Notes: generated from the letters alone by a model not told the origin. Positions 47,428-64,000 are shown, counted from the first letter of the stretch. The stretch: DNA of 64,000 bases from Rhodanobacter sp. (GCA_036563155.1 DATCMT010000026.1:7034-71033), one strand, 5' to 3'. Made by a program: numbers and translations.

Positions 47428-47722
47428 TCATGGTCGCGACGGGATCTTCAACAGCTGGCCAGGCCGGCTGCGATCCGGATCGGTGAGCTGATCGTGGTTT
47501 GCGTCGAAAATCCGCTTCCACGCACTCGCATTGCCATGGAGGTGCCTGGCGATCTTCGACAAGTTGTCGCCTGCCGCCAGGGCATAGGCAGGCCGTGTCG
47601 GCAGTCGAGCTGACCTGCGACTGCACGTCACCGAAATCGACCCCGGGTGGGGCATCTGGCGCGGTGGACTTCGCCCAGTCCCGCACATCCGAACAATCCG
47701 GTTTGCTGGTCTCGTTGCCCAT
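47428..47722 (-). pseudogene. Frameshifted LysM peptidoglycan-binding protein
   Basis: N-half MGNETSKPDCSDV..DFGDVQSQVSSTAD; LysM (AGDNLSKIARHLHGNASAWKRIFDAN..PDRSRPGQLLKIP) continues in another frame near 47595. Confidence 0.8.
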
Positions 47723-47910
47723 CGCACGCAACTCCGCCCGGGAAGAGAGCGCCAGTGATAACCACGTTGCGGTCAACGGCTTGTGAGTGCGTTTGCGGGG
47801 CGTTCAGCTGGGCAATCTCTCATGCGCAACGATACCGTTCATGGTCGGCCCGATCCCGCTCGCACCACTCCATCGTTATGATGAAAACCACCACATCTCA
47901 CGAGCCTCCC

Positions 47911-48816
47911 ATGTCCGACGATACCCTCAATGCCGACCGCCTCGACGACGTGATACTGGCCCTGTTGTGGGCCAACAGCTTCAAGGAAGAATTCGGCGGT
48001 TACCGCGCCTGGAAATCACTGCCCCGGGACGCACTGGACCGGTTGCATGCCAAGGGCCTTATCGGCAATGCACATGGCCACGCTCACAGCGTCACGCTCG
48101 GTGATGAGGCCTGGTCACGTGGCCAGGCGCTGTTCGAGCAATGGTTCGGCACCGGTGTACCTGCATCCACCAGGCCCGCCACACGAAGCCGGGCCAAGGC
48201 GACAGCCACAGCTGCCGCAAGCGTCCATCAGTTCAAGATCACCCTCGACGGCGTGAAGCCTCCAGTGTGGCGACGCATCCAGCTGCCCACCGACGCCAGC
48301 TTCTGGGACCTGCATTGCGCCATCAACGACGCCATGGGCTGGGAAGACATGCACCTGCACGCGTTTCAGATCGGCGACAAACGCAACGGCATCGACATCG
48401 GCATCCCGATGGAAGACGACATGCCCTGGAACGACACCACCATGCTCGCCGGCTGGGACGTTCCCATTGCCAACCACCTGGACAAGCCCGGCACCCGTTG
48501 CACTTATCTCTACGACTTCGGCGACGACTGGAGTCACAAGGTTGTTCTGGAAGCCATCACCCCACGCGAAGCCAAGGCCAAATACCCCCGCTGCCTCGCC
48601 GGCGCCCGCGCCTGCCCACCCGAAGACTGCGGTGGCATTTATGGTTATACGCGCCTGTGCGACATCCTGAAAAACCCGGCCAAAGCCAACGAGGAAGCCG
48701 AGGAACTGCTCGACTGGCTCGGCGACGACTTCGATCCCGAGGCGTTCGACGCGGGCAAGGTGAAGTTCGGTTCGGCGGCGAGGCGGTTGAAGGCGTTGCG
48801 CGGCAGCATGCGTTGA
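47911..48816 (+). CDS. Fusion of DUF6429-like winged-helix domain and pRiA4b ORF-3 family domain
   Basis: N-terminus LALLW..RAWK..LDRLHAKGLI..SVTL; C-terminus FKITL..PPVWRRI..LHCAINDAMGWEDMHLHAF, YLYDFGDDW, CPPEDCGG. Confidence 0.82.
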   Translation: MSDDTLNADRLDDVILALLWANSFKEEFGGYRAWKSLPRDALDRLHAKGLIGNAHGHAHSVTLGDEAWSRGQALFEQWFGTGVPASTRPATRSRAKATATAAASVHQFKITLDGVKPPVWRRIQLPTDASFWDLHCAINDAMGWEDMHLHAFQIGDKRNGIDIGIPMEDDMPWNDTTMLAGWDVPIANHLDKPGTRCTYLYDFGDDWSHKVVLEAITPREAKAKYPRCLAGARACPPEDCGGIYGYTRLCDILKNPAKANEEAEELLDWLGDDFDPEAFDAGKVKFGSAARRLKALRGSMR

Positions 48817-50444: not shown

Positions 50445-50639
50445 ATGGTCAACCATCAGCCCCCCTCCACTTTGTGTCGCCCCGCCGTCTCTGTGGTGGT
50501 GCACCTGCCGTACGAAATCGCCGATTGGCTGGCTTCGCAGCCAGACAGACACACATGGGTGACGCAACTCCTCGTCTCTTTTTATCGCCAGCGGCAGCCA
50601 GATCGACCTACGCAGGACGGAGCATCACATGAGCTTTGA
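50445..50639 (+). CDS. Small putative ribbon-helix-helix protein overlapping cas3 start
   Basis: VSVVVHLP-YEIADWLASQ-PDRHTWVTQLLVSFY gives a strand-helix-helix pattern; 11-nt overlap with cas3; RBS weak. Confidence 0.4.
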   Translation: MVNHQPPSTLCRPAVSVVVHLPYEIADWLASQPDRHTWVTQLLVSFYRQRQPDRPTQDGASHEL

Positions 50640-53088
50640 TGCATTCTTTCAGCACGCGACGCGGGTGCCGCGCCTGCCTTACCCCTATCAAACACGCCTG
50701 GCCACGGAGCCGTGGCCGGATGCGCTTCATGTGCCCACGGGCATGGGCAAGACCGCCGCCGTGGTGCTGGCGTGGTTATTCAAACGCGGTCACAGGCACA
50801 GCAACCCGCAGAGCACCCCGGACCCACAGACGCCGCGCAGGCTGGTGATTTGCCTGCCCATGCGTGTGCTGGTTGAGCAGACGGCCGCAGAAGTTCAAGG
50901 CTGGCTCGAATCGCTCGGTCTGCATGGCAAGGTGGGCGATGGCAAGGTGTCCGTGCATGTATTGATGGGCGGCAGCGAAAATGTACGCCATCCTGAATGG
51001 GCCGGTCAGCCGGAAGAAGACGCGATCATCATCGGCACCCAGGACATGCTGCTCTCGCGCGCTCTGATGCGCGGCTACGGCATGAGCCGCTATCAATGGC
51101 CGGTGCATTTCGCCCTGCTGCACAACGATTGCATGTGGGTCTTCGACGAAGTACAGCTGATGGGCGCGGGGCTTCCGACCAGCACGCAACTGGAAGCCTT
51201 CCGTCGCGATACCGGGCTGGCGCCCACCCACGCCAGCCGCAGCCTGTGGGTGTCGGCCACCTTGCACAAGGACTGGCTGGGCACCGTGGATTTCAAACCG
51301 CACCTGGCCACGCTCGCGATTTCCAGCCTGCAAGCCGACGACCGAGCGCAGGAAGTTGTACAACAGCGTTTGAGCGCATCCAAGCGGCTGCACCGGGCGC
51401 AAACCTCGCTCTCGGGTGGCGCCAAGGGCGATATCCAAGACTACGTCGCGTCGCTGGCTGGCGAGATCGTCGGCCAGCATCAAGCTGGTTGCCAGACACT
51501 GGTCATCCTCAACAACGTCGAGCGCGCGCAGCGGTTGCACACCGAGCTTGGCAAACGGCTGGCCGACGTACCACGGTTGCTTTTGCATGCCCGCTTCCGT
51601 GCGGAAGAGAGGCAGAGACTTGAGCGGCAACTTCGTGACCAACCAAATGCTCGCGGCCGCATCATCATCGCCACTCAGGCAATCGAGGCCGGCGTGGATA
51701 TCTCCGGCCGCACACTGTTCACCGAACTCGCGCCGTGGGCGTCGATGGTGCAGCGTTTTGGTCGCTGCAACCGGGACGGCAAACACGACCAGGCAGATGT
51801 GTTCTGGATCGACATCGCTGCCGACGCGGAGAGGCTCGCACGTCCCTATGACAACGTCACGCTGGCTGCCTCGCGCGACACGCTAGCCGCGCTGGAAGAT
51901 GTCGGTCCGACCCACCTGCCGCAGGTGGATGCCAACCGCCCGCTGACCCAGGTGCTGCGGCGGCGTGATTTCCTCGAACTGTTCAACACGGACGCCGACC
52001 TGTCCGGATTTGACGTGGATATCTCACCGTACATCCGCGACAGCGGCATACCGCCGATCCGAGTGTTCTGGCGCCATATCGAAAAGGGAAAACTGGACGC
52101 CATCGACAAACCGCAACACCAGGAACTTTGCCCCGCCTCCATCGGGCAGATCAGCGCCCACTTGGGCAGCAAGCTCAAGGGAGAGTCCCGCAGCGCATGG
52201 CGTTGGGATGTGCTGGATCGCAAGTGGGTTACGGTCCGCGCGGAGCAGGTTCACCCCGGCATGACCCTGCTGTTGAACACCGCGGAAGGCGGTTATAACG
52301 TGGATCTTGGTTTTGTTCCCGCAAGCAACATGCGCGTCGACACGGTCACCGTACAAACAGCCGATGACGAAGCAGACAGCAACGATGGCGACCCGTTGAC
52401 GCAGATCGGTTGCTGGGTATCGCTGCCCCAGCACCTGGGCGATGTCGCCACTGACGCTGCGGCACTATGCCAGTCGCTACACATCGACGCCGCACTGGCA
52501 GCCGCCGTCACCGAGGCTGGGCGTTGGCATGATCTCGGCAAGGCCCACGAAGCATTCCAGAACGCGCTCGAAGACAGTGGTCACGACCCCGACGGTACGC
52601 CGCCGTGGGCCAAGTCAAACGGCCGCGGACGACTACGCTATTTCGTCGAGACGGCCGACGAAAAGCAGCCGCGCAAGCACTTCCGCCACGAGTTGGCCTC
52701 CATGCTGGCGTGGTTGGAACACGGCTCGCGTGACACTCACCACGACCTGATTGCCTATCTGATCGCCGCCCATCACGGCAAAGTACGTATGGGCCTGCGC
52801 ACCCTACCCGGCGAAAGCGAACCCAAGGGAGACCGCGAGAAACTGTTCGCGCGTGGCGTGTGGGACGGCGACCATCTGCCCGCGCTCGCATTCGACGGTC
52901 GTGAGGTGCCGGAGACCACACTGCACCTGGACATCATGCAACTCGGCCGCAGCGAGCGGCAAGGCGCCTCATGGACCGCCCGGACACAGGCCTTGCTCAA
53001 GCAGCATGGTCCGTTCCGGCTGGCCTGGCTGGAAACGCTGGTGCGCATCGCCGACTGGCGCGCCTCAGCACGGGAGGCCAAGCCATGA
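50629..53088 (+). CDS. cas3: Type I-G Cas3 (SF2 helicase with C-terminal HD nuclease)
   Basis: PTGMGKT, FDEVQ, SAT, QRFGRCNR, then LPQHL..HDLGK..RHELAS..AHHGK..IADW. Confidence 0.96.
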   Translation: MSFDAFFQHATRVPRLPYPYQTRLATEPWPDALHVPTGMGKTAAVVLAWLFKRGHRHSNPQSTPDPQTPRRLVICLPMRVLVEQTAAEVQGWLESLGLHGKVGDGKVSVHVLMGGSENVRHPEWAGQPEEDAIIIGTQDMLLSRALMRGYGMSRYQWPVHFALLHNDCMWVFDEVQLMGAGLPTSTQLEAFRRDTGLAPTHASRSLWVSATLHKDWLGTVDFKPHLATLAISSLQADDRAQEVVQQRLSASKRLHRAQTSLSGGAKGDIQDYVASLAGEIVGQHQAGCQTLVILNNVERAQRLHTELGKRLADVPRLLLHARFRAEERQRLERQLRDQPNARGRIIIATQAIEAGVDISGRTLFTELAPWASMVQRFGRCNRDGKHDQADVFWIDIAADAERLARPYDNVTLAASRDTLAALEDVGPTHLPQVDANRPLTQVLRRRDFLELFNTDADLSGFDVDISPYIRDSGIPPIRVFWRHIEKGKLDAIDKPQHQELCPASIGQISAHLGSKLKGESRSAWRWDVLDRKWVTVRAEQVHPGMTLLLNTAEGGYNVDLGFVPASNMRVDTVTVQTADDEADSNDGDPLTQIGCWVSLPQHLGDVATDAAALCQSLHIDAALAAAVTEAGRWHDLGKAHEAFQNALEDSGHDPDGTPPWAKSNGRGRLRYFVETADEKQPRKHFRHELASMLAWLEHGSRDTHHDLIAYLIAAHHGKVRMGLRTLPGESEPKGDREKLFARGVWDGDHLPALAFDGREVPETTLHLDIMQLGRSERQGASWTARTQALLKQHGPFRLAWLETLVRIADWRASAREAKP

Positions 53089-53594
53089 AGCTGGCCGCGT
53101 TCGAAACCGTGGCCAAGGCGCTGGACACCGCTCAGGTGCGCTATCTGGTGGCCGGTGGCCTGGCCGTCAACGCGCACGGCTACATCCGCTTTACCGCCGA
53201 CATCGACATGGTCATCGCGCTCGACGCGGACAACATCGCCCGCGCCTTCAAGGCACTGTCGGAGATCGGCTGTACACCTTCGGTTCCCATCACCGCTGAC
53301 ATGTTTGCCAAACCGGAACAACGACACCAGTGGATGAAAGAAAAGGGCATGCAGGTGCTGAACTTTCACAGCAATGCCCATCCGGGAACCTCGGTGGACG
53401 TGTTCGTGCATGAGCCCTTCGATTTCGCGCAAGAGTACGCCGCTGCCATGCAAGGCGAACTCCTGCCAGGCATCACCGTGCGATTCGTTTCCATCCCTAC
53501 CCTGATCCGCATGAAGCAAGTCGCCGGACGCGCCCGCGACCTCGACGACATCGAGCACCTGCGTTGGTTGCAGAAGGACAGCGAACATGACTGA
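53085..53594 (+). CDS. Pol-beta-superfamily nucleotidyltransferase (DUF6036-like)
   Basis: YLVAGGLAVNAHGYIRFTADID (GG + DxD), VDVF, LIRMKQVAGRARDLDDI; GGAGG RBS; overlaps cas3 stop and cas8g start. Confidence 0.88.
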   Translation: MKLAAFETVAKALDTAQVRYLVAGGLAVNAHGYIRFTADIDMVIALDADNIARAFKALSEIGCTPSVPITADMFAKPEQRHQWMKEKGMQVLNFHSNAHPGTSVDVFVHEPFDFAQEYAAAMQGELLPGITVRFVSIPTLIRMKQVAGRARDLDDIEHLRWLQKDSEHD

Positions 53595-55974
53595 GCGCCG
53601 CGACGATATCGACTGGGAGAAAACCACCTTCGACGGCAGCCGCCGCGAGCAACTGCGCCGTGGACAGGCCATGAGCCTTCGCCAGCGGCTGGAAGCGCTG
53701 GATCAACTCACCGACTTGGCCGCCCGCATGCAAACCATGCCACGACATGGCGACTATGCCCGTCGCCGCGAAACTTCGGCCAGCGTGCACGAAGAACGGA
53801 GTCGTTATGCGGAGGGCGCCTCCATCCACACCCTGATTCTCGAAGGCTGCACGCCGACACCACTGGCAAGCTACCTGAAAGCACTCGGCATACTGCGTCT
53901 GGTCGCAGAGCAGGCCGATCCCGATACCTGCGGATACTGGATGGATGACGTGTTCACCTTGCAGACCACGCAGGATCGCGAAGCGCTGCAAGCTTTCTTT
54001 CTCGACCGGTATCAACCGACCCCTATCCTCGCGCCGTGGAATGGTGGCAGCGGATTTTACCCAGGAGACAATCAATCCGGCGTGGAGCCGGTAAGTCGCA
54101 GTGCCACACCTCGCCTTGCCACGTTGCGCGAAACCGTTGCCGCTATCAGGAAGGTGCTTGCACGATCCAACATCGAAGAAAAGCCTGACCTCGATACAAA
54201 GCTGGTGCTGCTTCGACACTTGCGTAACCACTTGGACGACAGTGCGCTGGTCTGGCTTGACGCCGCCACCTTGCTATCGGACGACAAGCCGCTGTATCCA
54301 CCTCTTTTGGGAACCGGAGGCAACGATGGGCGACTCGACTTCACCAATAACTTCCTGCAACGGCTAGTCAGCCTGATCGACTGCGATAGCGGTGAACCAA
54401 CGCTTCTGGCGAGGCAACAACTTCCAGAGAGCCTGTTCGGTGTCGCCACACCTGGGCAAGTCTCCGCTGCCATCGGCCAGTTTTCCCCCGGCGGCGCGGG
54501 TGGCCCCAACGGCACCACCGGATTCGACAGCAAATCCGGCTTCAATCCGTGGGACTTCGTCTTCATGCTGGAAGGCGCCGTACTGTTCGCGGCTGCCGCG
54601 ACCCGCCGTCTGGAATCGGGCGACACATCCGCACTCAGCTATCCGTTCACGGTGCGCACCACGGGAAGCAGCGACGGAAGCACGGCGCCGGACGACGAGA
54701 GCGCCGCGCGCGCGGAAATATGGATGCCACTGTGGGATCGTCCAACATCGCTGGATGAACTGCGGACCCTGTTGTCAGAAGGCCGCGTTACCCTGCACCG
54801 GCGCCCTGCACGCGACGGCCTAGACTTCGTGCGCGCCGTATCGCAACTGGGGGTTCAGCGCGGCATCCGTTCCTTTCAGCGCTATGGCTTCCTGATGCGA
54901 TCCGGCAAGGCGTATCTGGCCACGCCGTTGAACCGCATTCTGGTGGAACGCAATCCGGCCGCCGATCTGATCAATGAACTCGACACCCATTACTGGTTGC
55001 AACGCTTCCGCTCTCTGGCGCGGCGCAAGGAGGCCCCGGCCCGGTTACGCAGTCTGGTACGTCGCCTTGAGAGCGCCCTCTTCGATCTGTCGCGCTTTTC
55101 CGATCCACGCTTTGTGCAGCAGGTGCTGATCGTACTGGGGCAGGCGCAAGGCTATCTGGCTTCCAGCCCCGGCGCCCGCGAAAATTGCCCACCGGTTCCG
55201 CGCTTGAGCGTTGCCTGGAGCATCGCCGCCGACGATCGGAGCGCGACGTTCAGAATTTCCGCAGCACTGGCCGGCCTGCATCTGCAACCGGACGATGACG
55301 CCAAGCGGCCCTCCATGCCCATGGCCGTGCATTTCGCGCCCATCGACCCGGACGGCAGAAGCGGTTGGCCCAAGGATCCGAATTCAGCTGCCATGGTCTG
55401 GCATGCGGGCGACCTGAGCCGCAACCTCCATGCCGTCGCACAGCGACGGTTGCTGGATGCCCTGCGCGATGGCGATGTCGGCAAACCGTTCGCGCATTTT
55501 GCCACCGCACCACTGGTGCACATTGCCGAGTGGCTGGCCTCGCCCGCCATGGACACGCAAGTCGATGCCTTGCTGCGTGGCTTGGTACTGGCACGCATAC
55601 CACGCGGCTTCGCCGGCAAGGCACCTACCGCCACGCCATTGCCGGTCACCTTCGCCGCGCTGAAGCCATTGTTCTGCACCGAGCAGCAATTGCGCGATTG
55701 CGGGCTGCTGGCCACGGACCTGCGCCTTCCGCTGGAACCATCGATGCTCAAGCGCCTGTGGCTTGGCTCCGCCGACGCCATGCGGTATGCCGCCCGGCGC
55801 CTGCTCGCTGCCGGGCTGCATGTCGATACCAGCAACATCGACATGACCGCGGTTGATTCCCGCCGTTTGCTGGCAGCCCTGTTGGTTCCCATCACTAACG
55901 ACGATCTGAAACGGCTGTTGAAACCCCTGCAACCGTCCACTCGTGACAACGAACCTGAACTCGCTACCGCCTGA
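53587..55974 (+). CDS. cas8g: Cas8g (Csx17) with a 79-aa N-terminal extension
   Basis: From residue ~80: LEGCTPTPLASYLKALGILRLVAEQAD, PWNGGSGFY, LLGTGGNDGRLDFTNNF, NPWDFVFMLEGA, EIWMPLW; preceded in frame by an unrelated helical segment. Confidence 0.92.
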   Translation: MTERRDDIDWEKTTFDGSRREQLRRGQAMSLRQRLEALDQLTDLAARMQTMPRHGDYARRRETSASVHEERSRYAEGASIHTLILEGCTPTPLASYLKALGILRLVAEQADPDTCGYWMDDVFTLQTTQDREALQAFFLDRYQPTPILAPWNGGSGFYPGDNQSGVEPVSRSATPRLATLRETVAAIRKVLARSNIEEKPDLDTKLVLLRHLRNHLDDSALVWLDAATLLSDDKPLYPPLLGTGGNDGRLDFTNNFLQRLVSLIDCDSGEPTLLARQQLPESLFGVATPGQVSAAIGQFSPGGAGGPNGTTGFDSKSGFNPWDFVFMLEGAVLFAAAATRRLESGDTSALSYPFTVRTTGSSDGSTAPDDESAARAEIWMPLWDRPTSLDELRTLLSEGRVTLHRRPARDGLDFVRAVSQLGVQRGIRSFQRYGFLMRSGKAYLATPLNRILVERNPAADLINELDTHYWLQRFRSLARRKEAPARLRSLVRRLESALFDLSRFSDPRFVQQVLIVLGQAQGYLASSPGARENCPPVPRLSVAWSIAADDRSATFRISAALAGLHLQPDDDAKRPSMPMAVHFAPIDPDGRSGWPKDPNSAAMVWHAGDLSRNLHAVAQRRLLDALRDGDVGKPFAHFATAPLVHIAEWLASPAMDTQVDALLRGLVLARIPRGFAGKAPTATPLPVTFAALKPLFCTEQQLRDCGLLATDLRLPLEPSMLKRLWLGSADAMRYAARRLLAAGLHVDTSNIDMTAVDSRRLLAALLVPITNDDLKRLLKPLQPSTRDNEPELATA

Positions 55975-56994
<1,020 letters not shown>

Positions 56995-58651: not shown

Positions 58652-59368
58652 GTGCCACACTTGATGGGCAGTCCGTTGGACAACCCGCTCCCTTCAGGCG
58701 AACAGCGCAGCGACGCGATCCGCCTCGTCATGGATGACCGCGAATGTCGGGGCCCCATGCCTGCGGCCATCGCGGCGTGCGGTGCGTTTGCTGTGGAGGT
58801 GCGACGCCTTCCGGTAGGCGACTACTGCGTGGATGACGCGTTGCTGTTCGAACGCAAGACGCTGCTCGACCTGGCGGCCTCGATCAAGGACGGCCGGTTG
58901 TTCGATCAGGCGCTACGCCTGACCCATGCGGAACTACGCAGCGCACTGATTCTTGAAGGCAGCTCACGTGATCTGGTTACCAGCGGCATGCGCATGGAAT
59001 CCATCCGCGGCGCGCTGGTGAATGTTGCGCTGTTCATCAGCCTGCCCGTGCTGCGCACACGCGATGCGATGGATACGGCACGAACGTTGGGTTATGCCGT
59101 ACGACAGCGACGTGCGCTGGTCAACGGCGGATTGCCGCGCCACGGTTGCCGACCGAAGGGCAAGGCGGCATTGCAATCCTACGTGTTGCAGGGGCTTCCA
59201 GGCATTGGGCCGCGTCGCGCGGCGCGCCTGATCCAGCGATTCGGCAGCATCGAGGCAGCCATGGCGGCAGACATGGATGCGCTGGCCGAAGTAGACGGCA
59301 TTGGCGCACACACCGCGCGCAGGCTGCGCTGGTGTGTGGAAGAAGCGCCCGCGGCATTTGCCGTTTGA
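58652..59368 (+). CDS. XPF/ERCC4-family structure-specific nuclease with (HhH)2 domain
   Basis: DDRE, LPVGDY, FERKT..D...SIKDGRLFDQ, LILEG; two HhH motifs GLPGIGP and VDGIG. Confidence 0.92.
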   Translation: MPHLMGSPLDNPLPSGEQRSDAIRLVMDDRECRGPMPAAIAACGAFAVEVRRLPVGDYCVDDALLFERKTLLDLAASIKDGRLFDQALRLTHAELRSALILEGSSRDLVTSGMRMESIRGALVNVALFISLPVLRTRDAMDTARTLGYAVRQRRALVNGGLPRHGCRPKGKAALQSYVLQGLPGIGPRRAARLIQRFGSIEAAMAADMDALAEVDGIGAHTARRLRWCVEEAPAAFAV

Positions 59369-60137: not shown

Positions 60138-61856
60138 ATGGAACCGAAGCAGGGGGACTTGCAGCTGCCATTCCCGGAGCTGGGCGGCGACCAGCCGCTG
60201 ATTCCGGTGCGCATGCTCAATGAGCACGTGTATTGCCCGCGGCTGGCGTATCTGGAATGGGTGCAGGGCGAGTGGGCCGATTCCGCCGACACCGTCGATG
60301 GCCGACACCGGCACCGACGCGTTGACAAGCCTTCCGGAGACCTGCCTGCAGCTGACAAGGCGCGCGAAGAGAGCGCCGAGATCCACGCCCGTTCGGTCAC
60401 GCTGTCGTCCAACACCATCGGTCTGATCGCCAAGCTCGACCTGATCGAGGGCGAAGGCGATACCGTCACGCCAGTCGATTACAAGCGCGGCAAGCGGCCG
60501 CACACGCCACGCGGCGTGTACGATCCCGAACGCGTGCAACTGTGCGCACAAGGCCTGCTTCTGCGCGAACACGGCTATGTGTGCGACGAAGGCGCGATCT
60601 ACTACGTGGCGAGCAAGGAGCGCGTCGCCGTGCCCTTCGACGACGAGCTGATCGCACTGACCCGCAACGCGATTGCCGAGCTGCGTGCGATGGCCGCCGG
60701 CGGGCGTATTCCCGACCCGCTGGTGGACAGCCCCAAATGCCCACGCTGCTCGCTGGTGACGATCTGCCTGCCCGACGAGGTGCAATACCTGCATCGTGCC
60801 GAGCTGGCACCGCGCCCACTGGCCGTTCCGCATCACGAGGCACTACCCCTGTACATTCAGCAGTTCAACGCCAAGCTGGCAAAGAAGGGTGAAGTGCTGG
60901 AGGTCAGCAAGGATGATCAGGTGCTGGCCAAGGCCCGCATCGGCGAGGTCTCGCAGGTGGTGTTGATGGGGAATGTCTACATCACCTCGCCGTGCCTGGG
61001 CGAGCTGATGCAGCGGAACATCCCTGTCACCTGGCACAGCTATGGCGGCTGGTTCTACGGCCACACCGTCGGCAACGGCCACAAAAACGTGGAGCTGCGC
61101 ACCGCGCAGTACCGCACCAGCTTCAACGACGCCGCCTGCCTGCGCGTCGCGCGAGCGCTGGTGGCCGCAAAGATCGCCAACAGCCGCACCCAGTTGCGGC
61201 GCAACTGGAAACTCGAAAAAAAGCCGGAGCGCCTGTTGGCCGACATGAAGCGCATTCAACGGCAAAGCGAGAATGCCGAGAACCTGCAGACCCTGCTTGG
61301 CATCGAAGGCAACGCCGCCGCGCACTACTTCGAGAACTTCCGCAACACGCTCAAGCCCACGACCGTCGAAGACGAAGCGCTGCTGTCGTTCGATTTCACC
61401 CGGCGCAACCGGCGCCCACCGACCGATCCGGTCAATGCGATGCTGTCATTCGCCTATACCCTGCTGGCGCGGACGCTGACGGTGACACTGCAAGCGGTGG
61501 GTTTCGATCCGTTTCGCGGCTTCTACCACCAGCCGCGTTACGGTCGCCCCGCGCTCGCCCTGGACCTGATGGAGCCCTTCCGCCCGTTGCTTGCCGATTC
61601 GGTTGTGATCCAGGTGATCAACAACGGCGAGGTGCACCCCAGCGACTTCGTCAGCGCCGCCGGCAGCGTCAACCTCACCCCCGATGGACGCAAGCGATTC
61701 ATTGCCGCGTTCGAGCGCAGGCTCAGCCATGAGGTCACCCACCCCATGTTCGGTTATCGCCTGAGCTATCGCCGCCTGCTGGAACTGCAGGCGCGGCTGC
61801 TGGGGCGATTCCTGCTGGGCGAGCTGGACGACTACCCCAACTTCACCACCCGATGA
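60138..61856 (+). CDS. cas1: Cas4-Cas1 fusion
   Basis: Cas4: YCPRL, KLDL, DYKRG, CPRCSL..C; Cas1: GIEGNAAAHYF, NAMLSFAY, GFYH, LDLMEPFRP. Confidence 0.97.
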   Translation: MEPKQGDLQLPFPELGGDQPLIPVRMLNEHVYCPRLAYLEWVQGEWADSADTVDGRHRHRRVDKPSGDLPAADKAREESAEIHARSVTLSSNTIGLIAKLDLIEGEGDTVTPVDYKRGKRPHTPRGVYDPERVQLCAQGLLLREHGYVCDEGAIYYVASKERVAVPFDDELIALTRNAIAELRAMAAGGRIPDPLVDSPKCPRCSLVTICLPDEVQYLHRAELAPRPLAVPHHEALPLYIQQFNAKLAKKGEVLEVSKDDQVLAKARIGEVSQVVLMGNVYITSPCLGELMQRNIPVTWHSYGGWFYGHTVGNGHKNVELRTAQYRTSFNDAACLRVARALVAAKIANSRTQLRRNWKLEKKPERLLADMKRIQRQSENAENLQTLLGIEGNAAAHYFENFRNTLKPTTVEDEALLSFDFTRRNRRPPTDPVNAMLSFAYTLLARTLTVTLQAVGFDPFRGFYHQPRYGRPALALDLMEPFRPLLADSVVIQVINNGEVHPSDFVSAAGSVNLTPDGRKRFIAAFERRLSHEVTHPMFGYRLSYRRLLELQARLLGRFLLGELDDYPNFTTR

Positions 61857-61895: not shown

Positions 61896-62186
61896 ATGGA
61901 CGAACATCTGTACCTGGTAACCTACGATATTCGCGACGACAAGCGCTGGCGCCGCGTCTTCAAGACCATGAAGGGTTTCGGCGAATGGCTGCAACTTTCA
62001 GTATTCCAGTGCCGCATGAGCCAACGTCGGCATGCCGAGATGCTGGAACTGCTCGACGGCATCATCCTGCATCGCACCGATGCCCTGCTGATCATCGACC
62101 TCGGCCCTGCCGACAAGGTCAAACCCCGCGTGGTCAGCCTCGGTGACAAATTCGAACCCGTCGCGCGCGAGCCGATCATCGTGTGA
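61896..62186 (+). CDS. cas2: Cas2
   Basis: YLVTYDIRDDKRWRRVFK..GFG..LQLSVFQC. Confidence 0.97.
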   Translation: MDEHLYLVTYDIRDDKRWRRVFKTMKGFGEWLQLSVFQCRMSQRRHAEMLELLDGIILHRTDALLIIDLGPADKVKPRVVSLGDKFEPVAREPIIV

Positions 62187-62415
62187 CGGCCGCCCACCAT
62201 CGCCCACCCTCTTTCGCCCCTCCCACGCGAGCGCTCCGGTGACGCCGCAAAACCCGGCCACCTCTCGCATCACCATGCTCTTTGAAAATCCGATAGTTAG
62301 CCGCCACCGTTGCCACCCGGCATCGCGCGCGCTAGCCTGCCTCGCGCTTGTGCCGACCACCCCTCGCACATTCCCGTCAAACCGCCATACCGCACAAGGA
62401 CTTGCGGGAGGGGCG
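62187..62415 (+). promoter_or_regulatory. CRISPR leader
   Basis: Non-coding gap between cas2 and the first repeat, containing GCGAG..CTCGC inverted motifs. Confidence 0.7.
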
Positions 62416-64000
62416 GTGTTCCGCAGCAGTTCGCTGCGGCCTCATTGAAGCTCCTGCGGCCGTGCGTTGCGCGCAGCCACCGCCGTCGTGTTCCGCAGCA
62501 GTTCGCTGCGGCCTCATTGAAGCCGACGTACTTGTTGCCTTTCTTGATGCACGGGACGGTGTTCCGCAGCAGTTCGCTGCGGCCTCATTGAAGCCGCCAT
62601 GTTGGTCAGCCATGCGGTCATCAATGCCTCGTGTTCCGCAGCAGTTCGCTGCGGCCTCATTGAAGCAACCCACTGCATTTGATCTACCTGCCGCGCGCAG
62701 CGGCGTGTTCCGCAGCAGTTCGCTGCGGCCTCATTGAAGCTACTACTACGGCGAGACGCCGCCGTCCGAGTTGCGGGTGTTCCGCAGCAGTTCGCTGCGG
62801 CCTCATTGAAGCTATCTGTGGGCGTGCAACCTGTACGTGTCCGCTTGCGGTGTTCCGCAGCAGTTCGCTGCGGCCTCATTGAAGCAGGTACTCCTTGAGT
62901 GAGTGGTGTTGGGGGAGGTCGGTGTTCCGCAGCAGTTCGCTGCGGCCTCATTGAAGCCGGATCAGCAGCAAGGCGCCGGCACGCAACGTACTGAGTGTTC
63001 CGCAGCAGTTCGCTGCGGCCTCATTGAAGCGCGCAGGCCTGGAAGATGGCCGCCTGTTGAAGGCCCGTGTTCCGCAGCAGTTCGCTGCGGCCTCATTGAA
63101 GCAAGGTCAAGGGCGTATCGACGTACTACAACAAGGACGGGTGTTCCGCAGCAGTTCGCTGCGGCCTCATTGAAGCACTTCCCATCGCTATTCTCCTTTG
63201 TCGCCTTTGCCGTTGTGTTCCGCAGCAGTTCGCTGCGGCCTCATTGAAGCTACGTCCACGCGGTGACCGGCGTACTACCACCAAGCGTGTTCCGCAGCAG
63301 TTCGCTGCGGCCTCATTGAAGCCGCCACGGCTACGTGTCGGGCGAAGCGGCTGTGTGGGTGTTCCGCAGCAGTTCGCTGCGGCCTCATTGAAGCGCGCTG
63401 GCCTCCGGCGTCAACACCCGCTCGATGGGCGTGTTCCGCAGCAGTTCGCTGCGGCCTCATTGAAGCGCTTCGTTCTGCGCGATGCGGGGGATGCTGGGTG
63501 CAGTGTTCCGCAGCAGTTCGCTGCGGCCTCATTGAAGCGGCGGCACGGGTGGCGAAACTGACGAGAAACGGCTTGTGTTCCGCAGCAGTTCGCTGCGGCC
63601 TCATTGAAGCGGCTCGGGCCGCGTCCCAGCCGGCGTGTCGATCGTGTGTTCCGCAGCAGTTCGCTGCGGCCTCATTGAAGCGGATAGCGCGCCGGTCTAC
63701 TCCGCGACGCTGATTGTCGTGTTCCGCAGCAGTTCGCTGCGGCCTCATTGAAGCTCGCTGGTGTAGGCGGTATCCCAGTTGCTGGCCGTGGTGTTCCGCA
63801 GCAGTTCGCTGCGGCCTCATTGAAGCATGATCGAAGCCGACGAATCGATCAACGTCCGCGACGTGTTCCGCAGCAGTTCGCTGCGGCCTCATTGAAGCGC
63901 CGACTCCACTCGCGCGGTTAACGATGCCTACGGTGTGTTCCGCAGCAGTTCGCTGCGGCCTCATTGAAGCCAGCCTCGCCTGCTGACCGTAACCGGTGGC
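62416..64000 (+). CRISPR. Type I-G CRISPR array, 22 identical 36-bp repeats, 21 full spacers (35-38 nt) plus one truncated
   Basis: Repeat GTGTTCCGCAGCAGTTCGCTGCGGCCTCATTGAAGC (stem CCGCAGC/GCTGCGG, 5-nt loop, ATTGAAGC end) from 62416-62451 to 63935-63970; probably continues past the window. Confidence 0.99.

Follow-up and report, generated by a model that had tools for sequence, protein, structure and literature searches.

Evidence that the small partner of a putative MenT1-like nucleotidyltransferase has been built into Cas8g of type I-G CRISPR-Cas systems

Why should the large subunit of a CRISPR effector complex begin with some 79 residues that resemble a different protein? The question is raised by a 64,000-nucleotide stretch of DNA from Rhodanobacter sp. 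(GCA_036563155.1 DATCMT010000026.1:7034-71033; this whole stretch is referred to as the window), in which the region from 50.6 to 64 kb is a complete type I-G CRISPR-Cas system. The gene for Cas8g (Csx17), the large subunit of I-G Cascade, follows cas3g and the gene for a small nucleotidyltransferase (NTase). A first-pass annotation, made from the DNA alone, had proposed that the small partner of this NTase is covalently built into Cas8g. Degradation of target DNA is generally regarded as the sole means of defense of type I systems, and the couplings between type I systems and toxins that we know of are RNA-based (CreTA) or consist of simple neighborhood. The locus described here represents a covalent, protein-level coupling, in which the cognate partner of a MenT-like NTase lies inside the Cascade large subunit of many diverged I-G systems. 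The elements at issue are as follows:

53085–53594, plus strand: MenT1-like minimal Pol-beta NTase (169 aa), a putative toxin
53587–53739, plus strand: Cas8g aa 1–51, helical-hairpin partner domain; core DW-x-K-TTFDGSRREQLRR...SLRQRLEALDQLT-LA-RM
53740–53823, plus strand: Cas8g aa 52–79, disordered tail or linker of the former small protein, with VHEERSRY at aa 67–74 (53785–53808)
53811–53815, plus strand: GGAGG within codons GAG GGC, a possible relic Shine-Dalgarno (SD) sequence or a chance match
53824–55974, plus strand: Cas8g/Csx17 core (aa 80–795), large subunit of I-G Cascade; TIGR04113, 725.6 bits; PDB 8b2x_M, E 2e-205

The open reading frame (ORF) from 53587 to 55974 encodes 795 amino acids. 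As had been noticed in the first-pass annotation, recognizable Cas8g begins only at about residue 80: TIGR04113 (Cas8g1/Csx17) matches aa 84–782, corresponding to model positions 2–715 of 718, with a score far above the cutoff of 150 bits, and residues 6–714 of the Thioalkalivibrio sulfidiphilus (T. sulfidiphilus) protein 8b2x_M (720 aa), which is devoid of the extension, align to residues 79–790. The window protein carries about 79 additional N-terminal residues, in frame and with no stop. Inspection of the junctions bore out the reported coordinates. The extension's ATG at 53587 lies in an 8-nt overlap that also contains the NTase stop codon (TGA, 53592–53594), GGAGG occupies 53811–53815, and the ATC codon for I80 is at 53824. 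Upstream, the cas3 stop and the NTase start share the sequence ATGA, a 4-nt overlap.

Sequencing or assembly error in the form of a lost stop codon or a frameshift can be set aside as the source of the extension. The contig from the probable source run is identical across the stretch at about 20x, and contigs from two independent metagenomes (seawater and bioreactor) contain the same stretch with a single substitution, T53755G (Y57D), no indel, and no stop. Because the source contig is identical and the independent contigs keep the frame, the fusion is not an artifact; the stop before 53824 that the first-pass annotation had wanted looked for does not appear, and more than 25 diverged loci contain the same kind of fusion. 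The substituted position 57, which falls in the disordered tail, is also D in the close homologues P0165 and P0166.

When residues 1–83 were searched among proteins of Cas8g length, the extension was found on 27 further Csx17-length clusters (90% identity) of 789–878 aa, several of which are called Csx17 by their sources. The survey of I-G loci that had been suggested at the outset revealed that the arrangement cas3-NTase-partner::cas8g recurs in about 22 species-level named genomes. Four extended clusters lie on long contigs, and all four exhibit the order cas3, a gene of 168–169 aa, extended cas8g, cas7g, csb2, a variable insert, cas4-cas1, and cas2, with extended cas8g overlapping the preceding gene by 4 or 8 nt. 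The same arrangement, with a continuous frame in every case, occurs in Dokdonella, Dyella, Vulcaniibacterium, Hydrocarboniphaga effusa AP103, Fontimonas thermophila, Sinimarinibacterium, Pelomicrobium, Thiogranum, Wenzhouxiangellaceae, and further named genomes. Their Cas8g cores share only 36–47% identity with that of the window, with the exception of Dokdonella (70%). The extension is not an ordinary Cas8g N-terminus, being absent from the solved structure and from 30 of 38 I-G loci collected with the Cas8g core as seed. The fusion of partner and Cas8g is real and recurrent.

Where, then, does translation of Cas8g begin? In 30 unfused I-G loci, the canonical N-terminus places Met 3–5 residues before an (I/V)-L-x-G-C-x-P-x-P-L block (for example, MTHRV, MNEI, or MIHVH up to the block). 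The window protein departs from this pattern with 79–83 extra residues before the block and replacement of the Met codon (S79/I80); this is a variant architecture that does not exclude membership in the Cas8g family. Comparison with the nearest unfused Cas8g proteins (MTHRV, MPHTV, and MSHVL before the block) aligns the ancestral Met with S79 rather than I80. In 20 fused loci the ancestral start codon encodes another residue (R, V, D, S, and others), and within 14 codons of the canonical start these 20 loci contain neither an in-frame ATG nor an SD-preceded GTG or TTG. Cas8g in these loci is made as a fusion, because the canonical start is absent and no alternative start lies nearby. Two explanations had been offered for the junction in the window. 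Loss of the ancestral cas8g ATG stands and extends to all fused loci. An internal start at ATC 53824 behind GGAGG does not stand as a conserved feature: neither an SD sequence nor a start exists at the equivalent place in the 20 fused loci, and GGAGG is missing from the closest fused relative (Dokdonella). A weak internal start peculiar to this strain could still operate at ATC 53824.

An exhaustive HMMER search with residues 1–83 retrieved 234 representative proteins (E ≤ 1e-3), nearly all of them free ORFs of 55–120 aa. The family is conserved over residues 5–55, with the pattern I-D-W-x-x-T-T-[FW]-[DE]-G-S-R-R-x-Q-L-R-R ... L-[ST]-x-R-[EQ]-R-L-E-A-L. It has no Pfam match, the extension has no NCBIfam match in a full-protein scan, and a profile of 93 hairpin proteins yields no sequence match in the PDB, including no MenA1 chain at E ≤ 10. 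An AlphaFold2 (AF2) model of the full 795 aa, built with 60 homologues, contains three parts: a hairpin module (aa ~8–50) with helices at 15–28 and 31–50 and a predicted local distance difference test score (pLDDT) of 68–87, a disordered segment at aa 54–75 (pLDDT <50), and the Cas8g body, in which pLDDT exceeds 90 from aa 81. The three-part model therefore depicts the extension as an independent helical hairpin on a flexible tether, and AF2 does not predict docking of either the hairpin or the tail motif on the Cas8g body. Residues 4–73 of the extension (53587–53835) also weakly match the last 70 positions of the PADLOC model RT_UG32 (E 0.0037); this C-terminal match may reflect another fusion of an effector to the hairpin.

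The apparent linker of about 28 residues is the small protein's own C-terminal tail. In 29 of 30 Cas8g fusions the tail contains the motif V-[RHQ]-E-x4-Y, situated about 10 residues before the Cas8g body (NEIVL-GC). The motif occurs near the C-terminus of only ~7–12 of 52 free partners, several of them encoded next to cas genes (L153, L030, and L140). We rejected it as a family-wide feature, since most free partners are without it. It could, among other roles, touch the NTase or Cas3, be the site of a modification, or offer a handle to a protease. In locus L030 (3190–3474), a small ORF that reads as DUF2283-like ends in VRESGVKYGRKGK, the same tail motif as in hairpin proteins; the motif may therefore be a portable short linear motif with a partner of its own.

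The identity of the extension emerges from its genomic company. A survey seeded with the NTase detected relatives in 339 of 185,579 species-level genomes, and 79 of the 80 best loci were mapped. A hairpin ORF lies directly 3' of the NTase gene in 77 of these 79 loci: 54 are free, 22 are fused to Cas8g, and one is fused to the NTase. One of the two remaining NTase genes lies at a contig end, and the other is separated from an extended cas8g by an 8-kb type III module. The hairpin is an obligate neighbor of this NTase family. The 54 free partners substantiate the earlier statement that small helical ORFs occur as free genes beside such NTases, and they place matches to the extension, when searched by itself, where the first-pass annotation had suggested looking for them. 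At least 10 protein clusters consist of single NTase::hairpin chains. The AF2 model of one such chain, P0193, has a mean pLDDT of 94.5, a predicted template modeling score (pTM) of 0.90, and pLDDT of 88–97 in the hairpin; NTase and hairpin are thus predicted to form one compact unit in the single chain.

Loci collected with the Cas8g core as seed are unbiased with regard to the extension (n = 38). Four of these I-G loci contain both NTase and extension, 30 contain neither and have cas3 abutting a canonical Cas8g, and four have a Cas3::Fic fusion. The window genome (99.8% complete) encodes exactly one NTase and one hairpin, the latter being that on Cas8g. A hidden Markov model of the hairpin found no copy in unfused I-G loci except for a free one upstream of cas3 in L049 (Nitrosospira; 613–860). 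This ORF directly precedes cas3g of an otherwise canonical I-G system on an 8.7-kb contig that contains no NTase, and it may be a partner-only relic or a form that acts in trans. We discarded L027 as a case of extension without NTase; its NTase gene is present on the contig, 8 kb upstream of the extended cas8g and beyond the type III insertion that separated the two. In this locus (L027/L123; DATLZB010000166.1, a Hyphomicrobiaceae metagenome-assembled genome), ~8 kb of type III genes split the I-G operon, the insert comprises ORFs that read as RAMP-like and a Csm6 HEPN protein confirmed by Pfam, and the NTase is possibly truncated (it matches query positions 1–150). Also discarded were two ORFs of 73–74 aa upstream of NTase::hairpin genes, considered as MenA1-like antitoxins: one corresponds to the C-terminus of a WYL regulator, and the second appears not to be a genuine gene.

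What kind of enzyme is the NTase? Its only sequence relative in the PDB detected by phmmer is MenT1 of Mycobacterium tuberculosis (8an4; E 1.2e-4), and R35-F-T37-A-D39-I-D41 of the NTase aligns in register with R37-F-T39-R-D41-V-D43 of MenT1 (RFTxDxD). Matches to AbiEii profiles are weak (Pfam E 7.4e-4; PADLOC E 0.003). Residues of the Pol-beta core (GG24-25, D39-x-D41, K144, D152, and D155) are conserved across 35 aligned NTases; R35, T37, D41, K144, D152, and D155 are each kept in at least 33 of the 35, and T37 in all 35. Among 41 close homologues the core residues are invariant, as is D105 of a VDVF strand. All 19 CRISPR-linked NTases in the alignment retain the DxD (D39 and D41), the Thr, and the Lys and Asp of the C-terminal helix; these proteins therefore look like active enzymes. 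A Foldseek search with the model of P0193, which is 51% identical to the window NTase (P0003), returned MenT1/MenAT1 structures (8an5, 8an4, and 8rr5) as the top five matches (E 2.9e-8 to 1.2e-5, probability 1.0, TMt 0.59–0.63), followed by ANT(2'')-Ia, LnuA, JHP933, and TM1012. Alignments and predicted fold support classification of the NTase as MenT1-like, a putative toxin of the MenT/AbiEii kind.

MenT1 is a toxin that extends the 3' ends of tRNA (PMC10435456, PMC11375011). Its antitoxin, MenA1, is a helical protein of 68 aa without a DNA-binding domain that bridges two MenT1 molecules (PMC10435456, PMC11375011) and induces auto-phosphorylation of MenT1 at T39 (PMC11375011); of 21 menA1 homologues, 15 precede a menT-like gene (PMC10435456), whereas the hairpin gene follows its NTase gene. 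The pair described here resembles MenAT1 (Rv0078A/Rv0078B; 8an4, 8an5, and 8rr5) in several respects. The NTase is likewise a minimal enzyme of less than 200 aa with MenT1 as its best fold match, and it shares the R-F-T-x-D-x-D stretch including the phospho-acceptor Thr (T37, equivalent to MenT1 T39). The partner is likewise small (~55–100 aa), all-helical, without a DNA-binding domain, and encoded in a tight bicistron; two AF2 models and 77 of 79 loci depict a small two-helix protein adjacent to the NTase. The likeness in sequence and predicted fold has limits in that the partner here is joined to the large subunit of a CRISPR complex, Cas3, or the NTase, and the toxin gene comes first. A second relative is AbiE, a type IV toxin-antitoxin (TA) and abortive-infection system that shares a Pol-beta NTase (AbiEii, DUF1814), to which our NTase has its weak profile matches, and a defense-locus context. 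AbiEii differs in its size (~250–300 aa) and in a C-terminal domain that the window NTase lacks, and AbiEi is a large winged helix-turn-helix antitoxin encoded upstream.

Together, the pairing, the single chains, the co-occurrence in I-G loci, and the MenT1-like fold and motif support the central proposal of the first-pass annotation, that a small partner of the NTase has been covalently built into Cas8g. What might the fusion do? In the account that we favor and consider fairly probable, the hairpin binds and silences a MenT-like toxin parked on Cascade, and the toxin is freed upon loss or degradation of Cas8g or displacement of its N-terminus. A type I-G system would have taken in a two-gene TA-like module composed of an NTase of the MenT1/AbiEii kind followed by a small hairpin protein; in the window and in a patchy set of other I-G lineages, the partner gene has lost its stop and cas8g its start. 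Every Cas8g molecule would be made with the partner at its N-terminus, tethered by the disordered tail, and the 4-nt and 8-nt overlaps would couple translation of cas3, the NTase, and partner::Cas8g in that order. The hairpin would keep the bound NTase inactive, as MenA1 does MenT1, at a site near the interface between Cas8g and Cas3. Failure to produce Cas8g, its degradation, or displacement of the module at its N-terminus would release the NTase, which would then arrest growth, possibly through addition of nucleotides to tRNA 3' ends by analogy with MenT. The outcome would be a backup dormancy or an abortive response, and a cell that lost the 5' portion of the cas operon would pay for it.

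Several observations weigh against this account. The hairpin does not resemble MenA1 in sequence, and the gene order is reversed, with the toxin first. Similarity of the NTase to MenT1 is remote (18–22% identity; template modeling scores of 0.5–0.63), the fold comparison was made with P0193 rather than P0003 itself, and Pfam scores of the NTase fall just below the gathering cutoffs (PF08843 AbiEii, 20.0 versus 22.5 bits; PF19502 DUF6036, 23.3 versus 23.6 bits). Chains in which NTase and hairpin are permanently fused fit a simple inhibitor poorly and suggest a regulatory switch or an adaptor. The hairpin adjoins I-G genes in the absence of a detectable NTase in L049, L030, L004, and L003. It is also fused to assorted downstream proteins, including Cas3, a SEC-C protein, Fic (P0101), and an MNT-type NTase (P0083); because the hairpin is joined to whatever lies downstream, some fusions may be neutral read-throughs. 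Finally, a role in addiction alone is weakened because a nonsense or frameshift mutation inside cas8g would still yield the N-terminal partner.

Other fusions and rearrangements of the hairpin were encountered in the survey. A triple fusion of NTase, hairpin, and SEC-C (566 aa) follows a WYL regulator in L137 (1435–3132), a hairpin::SEC-C protein has 387 aa (P0037), and a SEC-C gene lies upstream of two tandem hairpin ORFs in L032 (3917–5347). In L030 (1818–4272), an 83-aa N-terminal fragment of cas3 is followed by a diverged hairpin ORF, and intact cas3 is immediately preceded by another; in P0045, a Cas3 fragment and the hairpin form a chimera. The pattern suggests that insertion occurred repeatedly and duplicated the 5' end of cas3.

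The pair has the attributes of a generic TA system, a conserved bicistron that is mobile between genomic contexts. In the NTase tree, CRISPR-linked pairs, free pairs, and single-chain pairs are interleaved, and well-supported branches force at least four changes; for example, the CRISPR-linked NTase of Thiogranum is sister to the free one of Halomonas (Shimodaira-Hasegawa-like approximate likelihood ratio test, 99). A quickly built tree of Cas8g cores requires at least five gains or losses of the extension. Evidently I-G loci have acquired and shed the module, or else they have decayed around it, as would be expected if NTase and hairpin can be lost only as a unit. A WYL-type regulator often precedes free pairs and likewise I-G operons.

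About 30 of the 79 NTase loci lie within type I cas operons, and their arrangements vary. The pair is free in the slot between csb2 and cas4-cas1 of the otherwise canonical I-G loci L097 and L113, and it stands ahead of cas7g-csb2 variants in L153 and L074. Single-chain NTase::hairpin genes are located directly upstream of a type I-E operon containing cas3, cse1, cse2, and cas7e (L075:223-933) and upstream of a cas7g-csb2-...-Cas10-like cluster (L074:5903-6619); the module is therefore not confined to canonical I-G systems. In L124 (9497–12406), an I-G variant with a short Cas8, it is Cas3 (970 aa), and not Cas8g, that bears the hairpin at its N-terminus; genes for HIRAN and NTase are followed by cas3, a 294-aa gene, cas7g, csb2, and cas4-cas1. 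Four Chromatiaceae I-G loci (L061:1483-4986, L060, L064, and L068, including Thiocapsa marina 5811) encode Cas3g with a Fic/DOC domain at its C-terminus (Pfam E 9.5e-13; aa 1017–1118 of 1167). The fused Fic domain fills the position between cas3 and cas8g that is held by the NTase in the window, and the Cas8g start is canonical there.

These contexts bear on two other explanations. The hairpin might dock an active NTase on the complex of Cascade and Cas3, with target binding or the loading of Cas3 at Cas8g activating the enzyme, whose action on tRNA, or on ends of nucleic acid at the target, would constitute an abortive or damage-amplifying arm. I-G Cascade would hold a tRNA-modifying toxin on a tether and possess a second immune arm coupled to the target; formation of an R-loop, Cas3 engagement at Cas8g, or anti-CRISPR attack would displace the hairpin and free or activate the NTase, and the sibling Cas3-Fic or hairpin-Cas3 proteins would serve the same end. 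It is tempting to consider such a scheme, which would give DNA-targeting systems a protein-level counterpart to the collateral effectors found in types III and VI. Cas3 is said to bind I-G Cascade through Cas8g. Moreover, Cas3g::Fic puts another nucleotide-transferring toxin domain at the same position, the hairpin sits on Cas3 in L124 and N-terminally on the same kind of Fic domain in P0101, nearly all Cas8g fusions and few free partners (some of the latter by cas genes) contain the tail Tyr motif, and NTase::hairpin genes head I-G-variant and I-E operons. We nevertheless judge this explanation unlikely: 47 of the 79 NTase loci have no cas gene within 9 kb, so that the module works without CRISPR; we are aware of no structural or biochemical finding that ties the N-terminus of Cas8g to R-loop formation; and AF2 places neither hairpin nor tail on the Cas8g body. 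It is also conceivable that the module is an ordinary TA cassette that colonizes defense loci and whose antitoxin frame ran into cas8g, the extension being tolerated with no role in CRISPR function. The presence of several kinds of TA cassette in these I-G loci, the forced changes on both trees, and the joining of the hairpin to various downstream genes all agree with such selfish behavior. Yet fusion, frame, and tail motif have been kept across Cas8g cores of 36–47% identity, although one stop and a new start would undo the fusion; no unfused intermediate at the position between cas3 and cas8g was seen in ~26 loci; and a disproportionately large share of the modules (about 30 of 79 loci in type I cas operons) belongs to a CRISPR subtype that is itself rare. 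An idle passenger consequently seems to us quite improbable.

A further explanation assigns the fusion to control of Cascade itself. The NTase would nucleotidylylate Y74 of the tail, or would be auto-phosphorylated on T37 when bound, as a reversible switch on Cas8g or Cascade. MntA and Fic enzymes modify Tyr or Thr of partner proteins, and the hairpin is a partner of three kinds of nucleotide-transferring enzyme, the MenT-like NTase, the MNT-type NTase, and Fic. A conserved Tyr stands out within an otherwise variable disordered tail, and the Thr that is equivalent to the MenT1 residue whose auto-phosphorylation MenA1 induces (PMC11375011) is invariant in the aligned NTases. Absence of the Tyr motif from most free partners argues that tail modification is not the general basis of the pair, and we hold this explanation to be highly improbable.

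Silencing of a MenT-like toxin by a partner carried on Cascade, the account that we favor, invites comparison with known systems. CreTA is similar in concept, with restraint of its toxin dependent on Cascade subunits; neutralization requires these subunits, safeguards the cas genes, and may serve as a backup against anti-CRISPRs (PMC12737573). It differs in that CreTA is RNA-based and uses transcriptional repression guided by a crRNA-like molecule, whereas the link proposed here is a protein domain covalently contained in Cas8g. Effector fusions of Cas8 and Cas3 such as HNH-Cas8 also append an extra module to the type I large subunit or to Cas3. To our knowledge, the fused modules of that class are nucleases acting on the target; the part fused here is no enzyme but the partner of a separately encoded NTase. 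NTase::hairpin single chains are reminiscent of CapRel-SJ46, in that a toxin is fused to an antitoxin domain with a regulatory role that a trigger could open; the folds of both toxin and partner are different. A search of the literature, including a 2025 review of TA-CRISPR associations, found no NTase in I-G loci, no hairpin family, and no Cas3::Fic. If the NTase is a toxin and Cascade controls it, the coupling would represent a new route for type I CRISPR to dormancy, anti-CRISPR resistance, or self-retention, and the hairpin would define a new family of partners (antitoxins) for MenT-like NTases. The system would be compact and directly testable, since it comprises three genes, lends itself to clear point mutants, and can be compared with an I-G Cascade of solved structure. 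With regard to annotation, the first 79 residues of such "Csx17" proteins should be treated as a separate functional module.

The genomic context of the window is that of an I-G Cas8g, with cas3g, cas7g (csb1), csb2, cas4-cas1, cas2, and an array all present. The remaining components are:

50629–53088, plus strand: cas3g, helicase with C-terminal HD nuclease (819 aa); TIGR02621 cas3_GSU0051, E 5.9e-245; Pfam DEAD, Helicase_C, Cas3-like_C_2, and Cas3_HD
55990–56994, plus strand: cas7g (csb1); TIGR02570, PF09617
56991–58544, plus strand: csb2 (Cas5-Cas6 fusion); TIGR02165, E 6.7e-64
58652–59368, plus strand: ERCC4/XPF-(HhH)2 nuclease, cargo of the variable interval that separates csb2 from cas4-cas1; PF02732, E 1.5e-19, and HHH_5
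60138–61856, plus strand: cas4g-cas1g fusion; NF049935, E 1.1e-251
61896–62186, plus strand: cas2; PF09827, E 1.5e-16
62413–63970, plus strand: CRISPR array of ~21 units with a period of 72 and a 36-nt repeat, GTGTTCCGCAGCAGTTCGCTGCGGCCTCATTGAAGC (Tandem Repeats Finder)

Genes for DUF6429 and PRiA4_ORF3 precede cas3 in the window (47647–48816), and genes for pRiA4b ORF-3-like and/or HIRAN proteins are recurrent just upstream of hairpin-bearing I-G loci (also L004, 212–1623, and L124, 8175–8663). Between csb2 and cas4-cas1, I-G loci have a slot whose cargo varies. It is occupied by the ERCC4/(HhH)2 nuclease in the window and in Dyella, and by MazE/PIN, Phd/PIN, PemK, or a free NTase and hairpin pair in other I-G loci. 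The cargo lies at 58652–59368 in the window, 14188–14765 in L005, 14247–14889 in L007, 13878–14527 in L008, 9001–9736 in L097, and 8781–9537 in L113.

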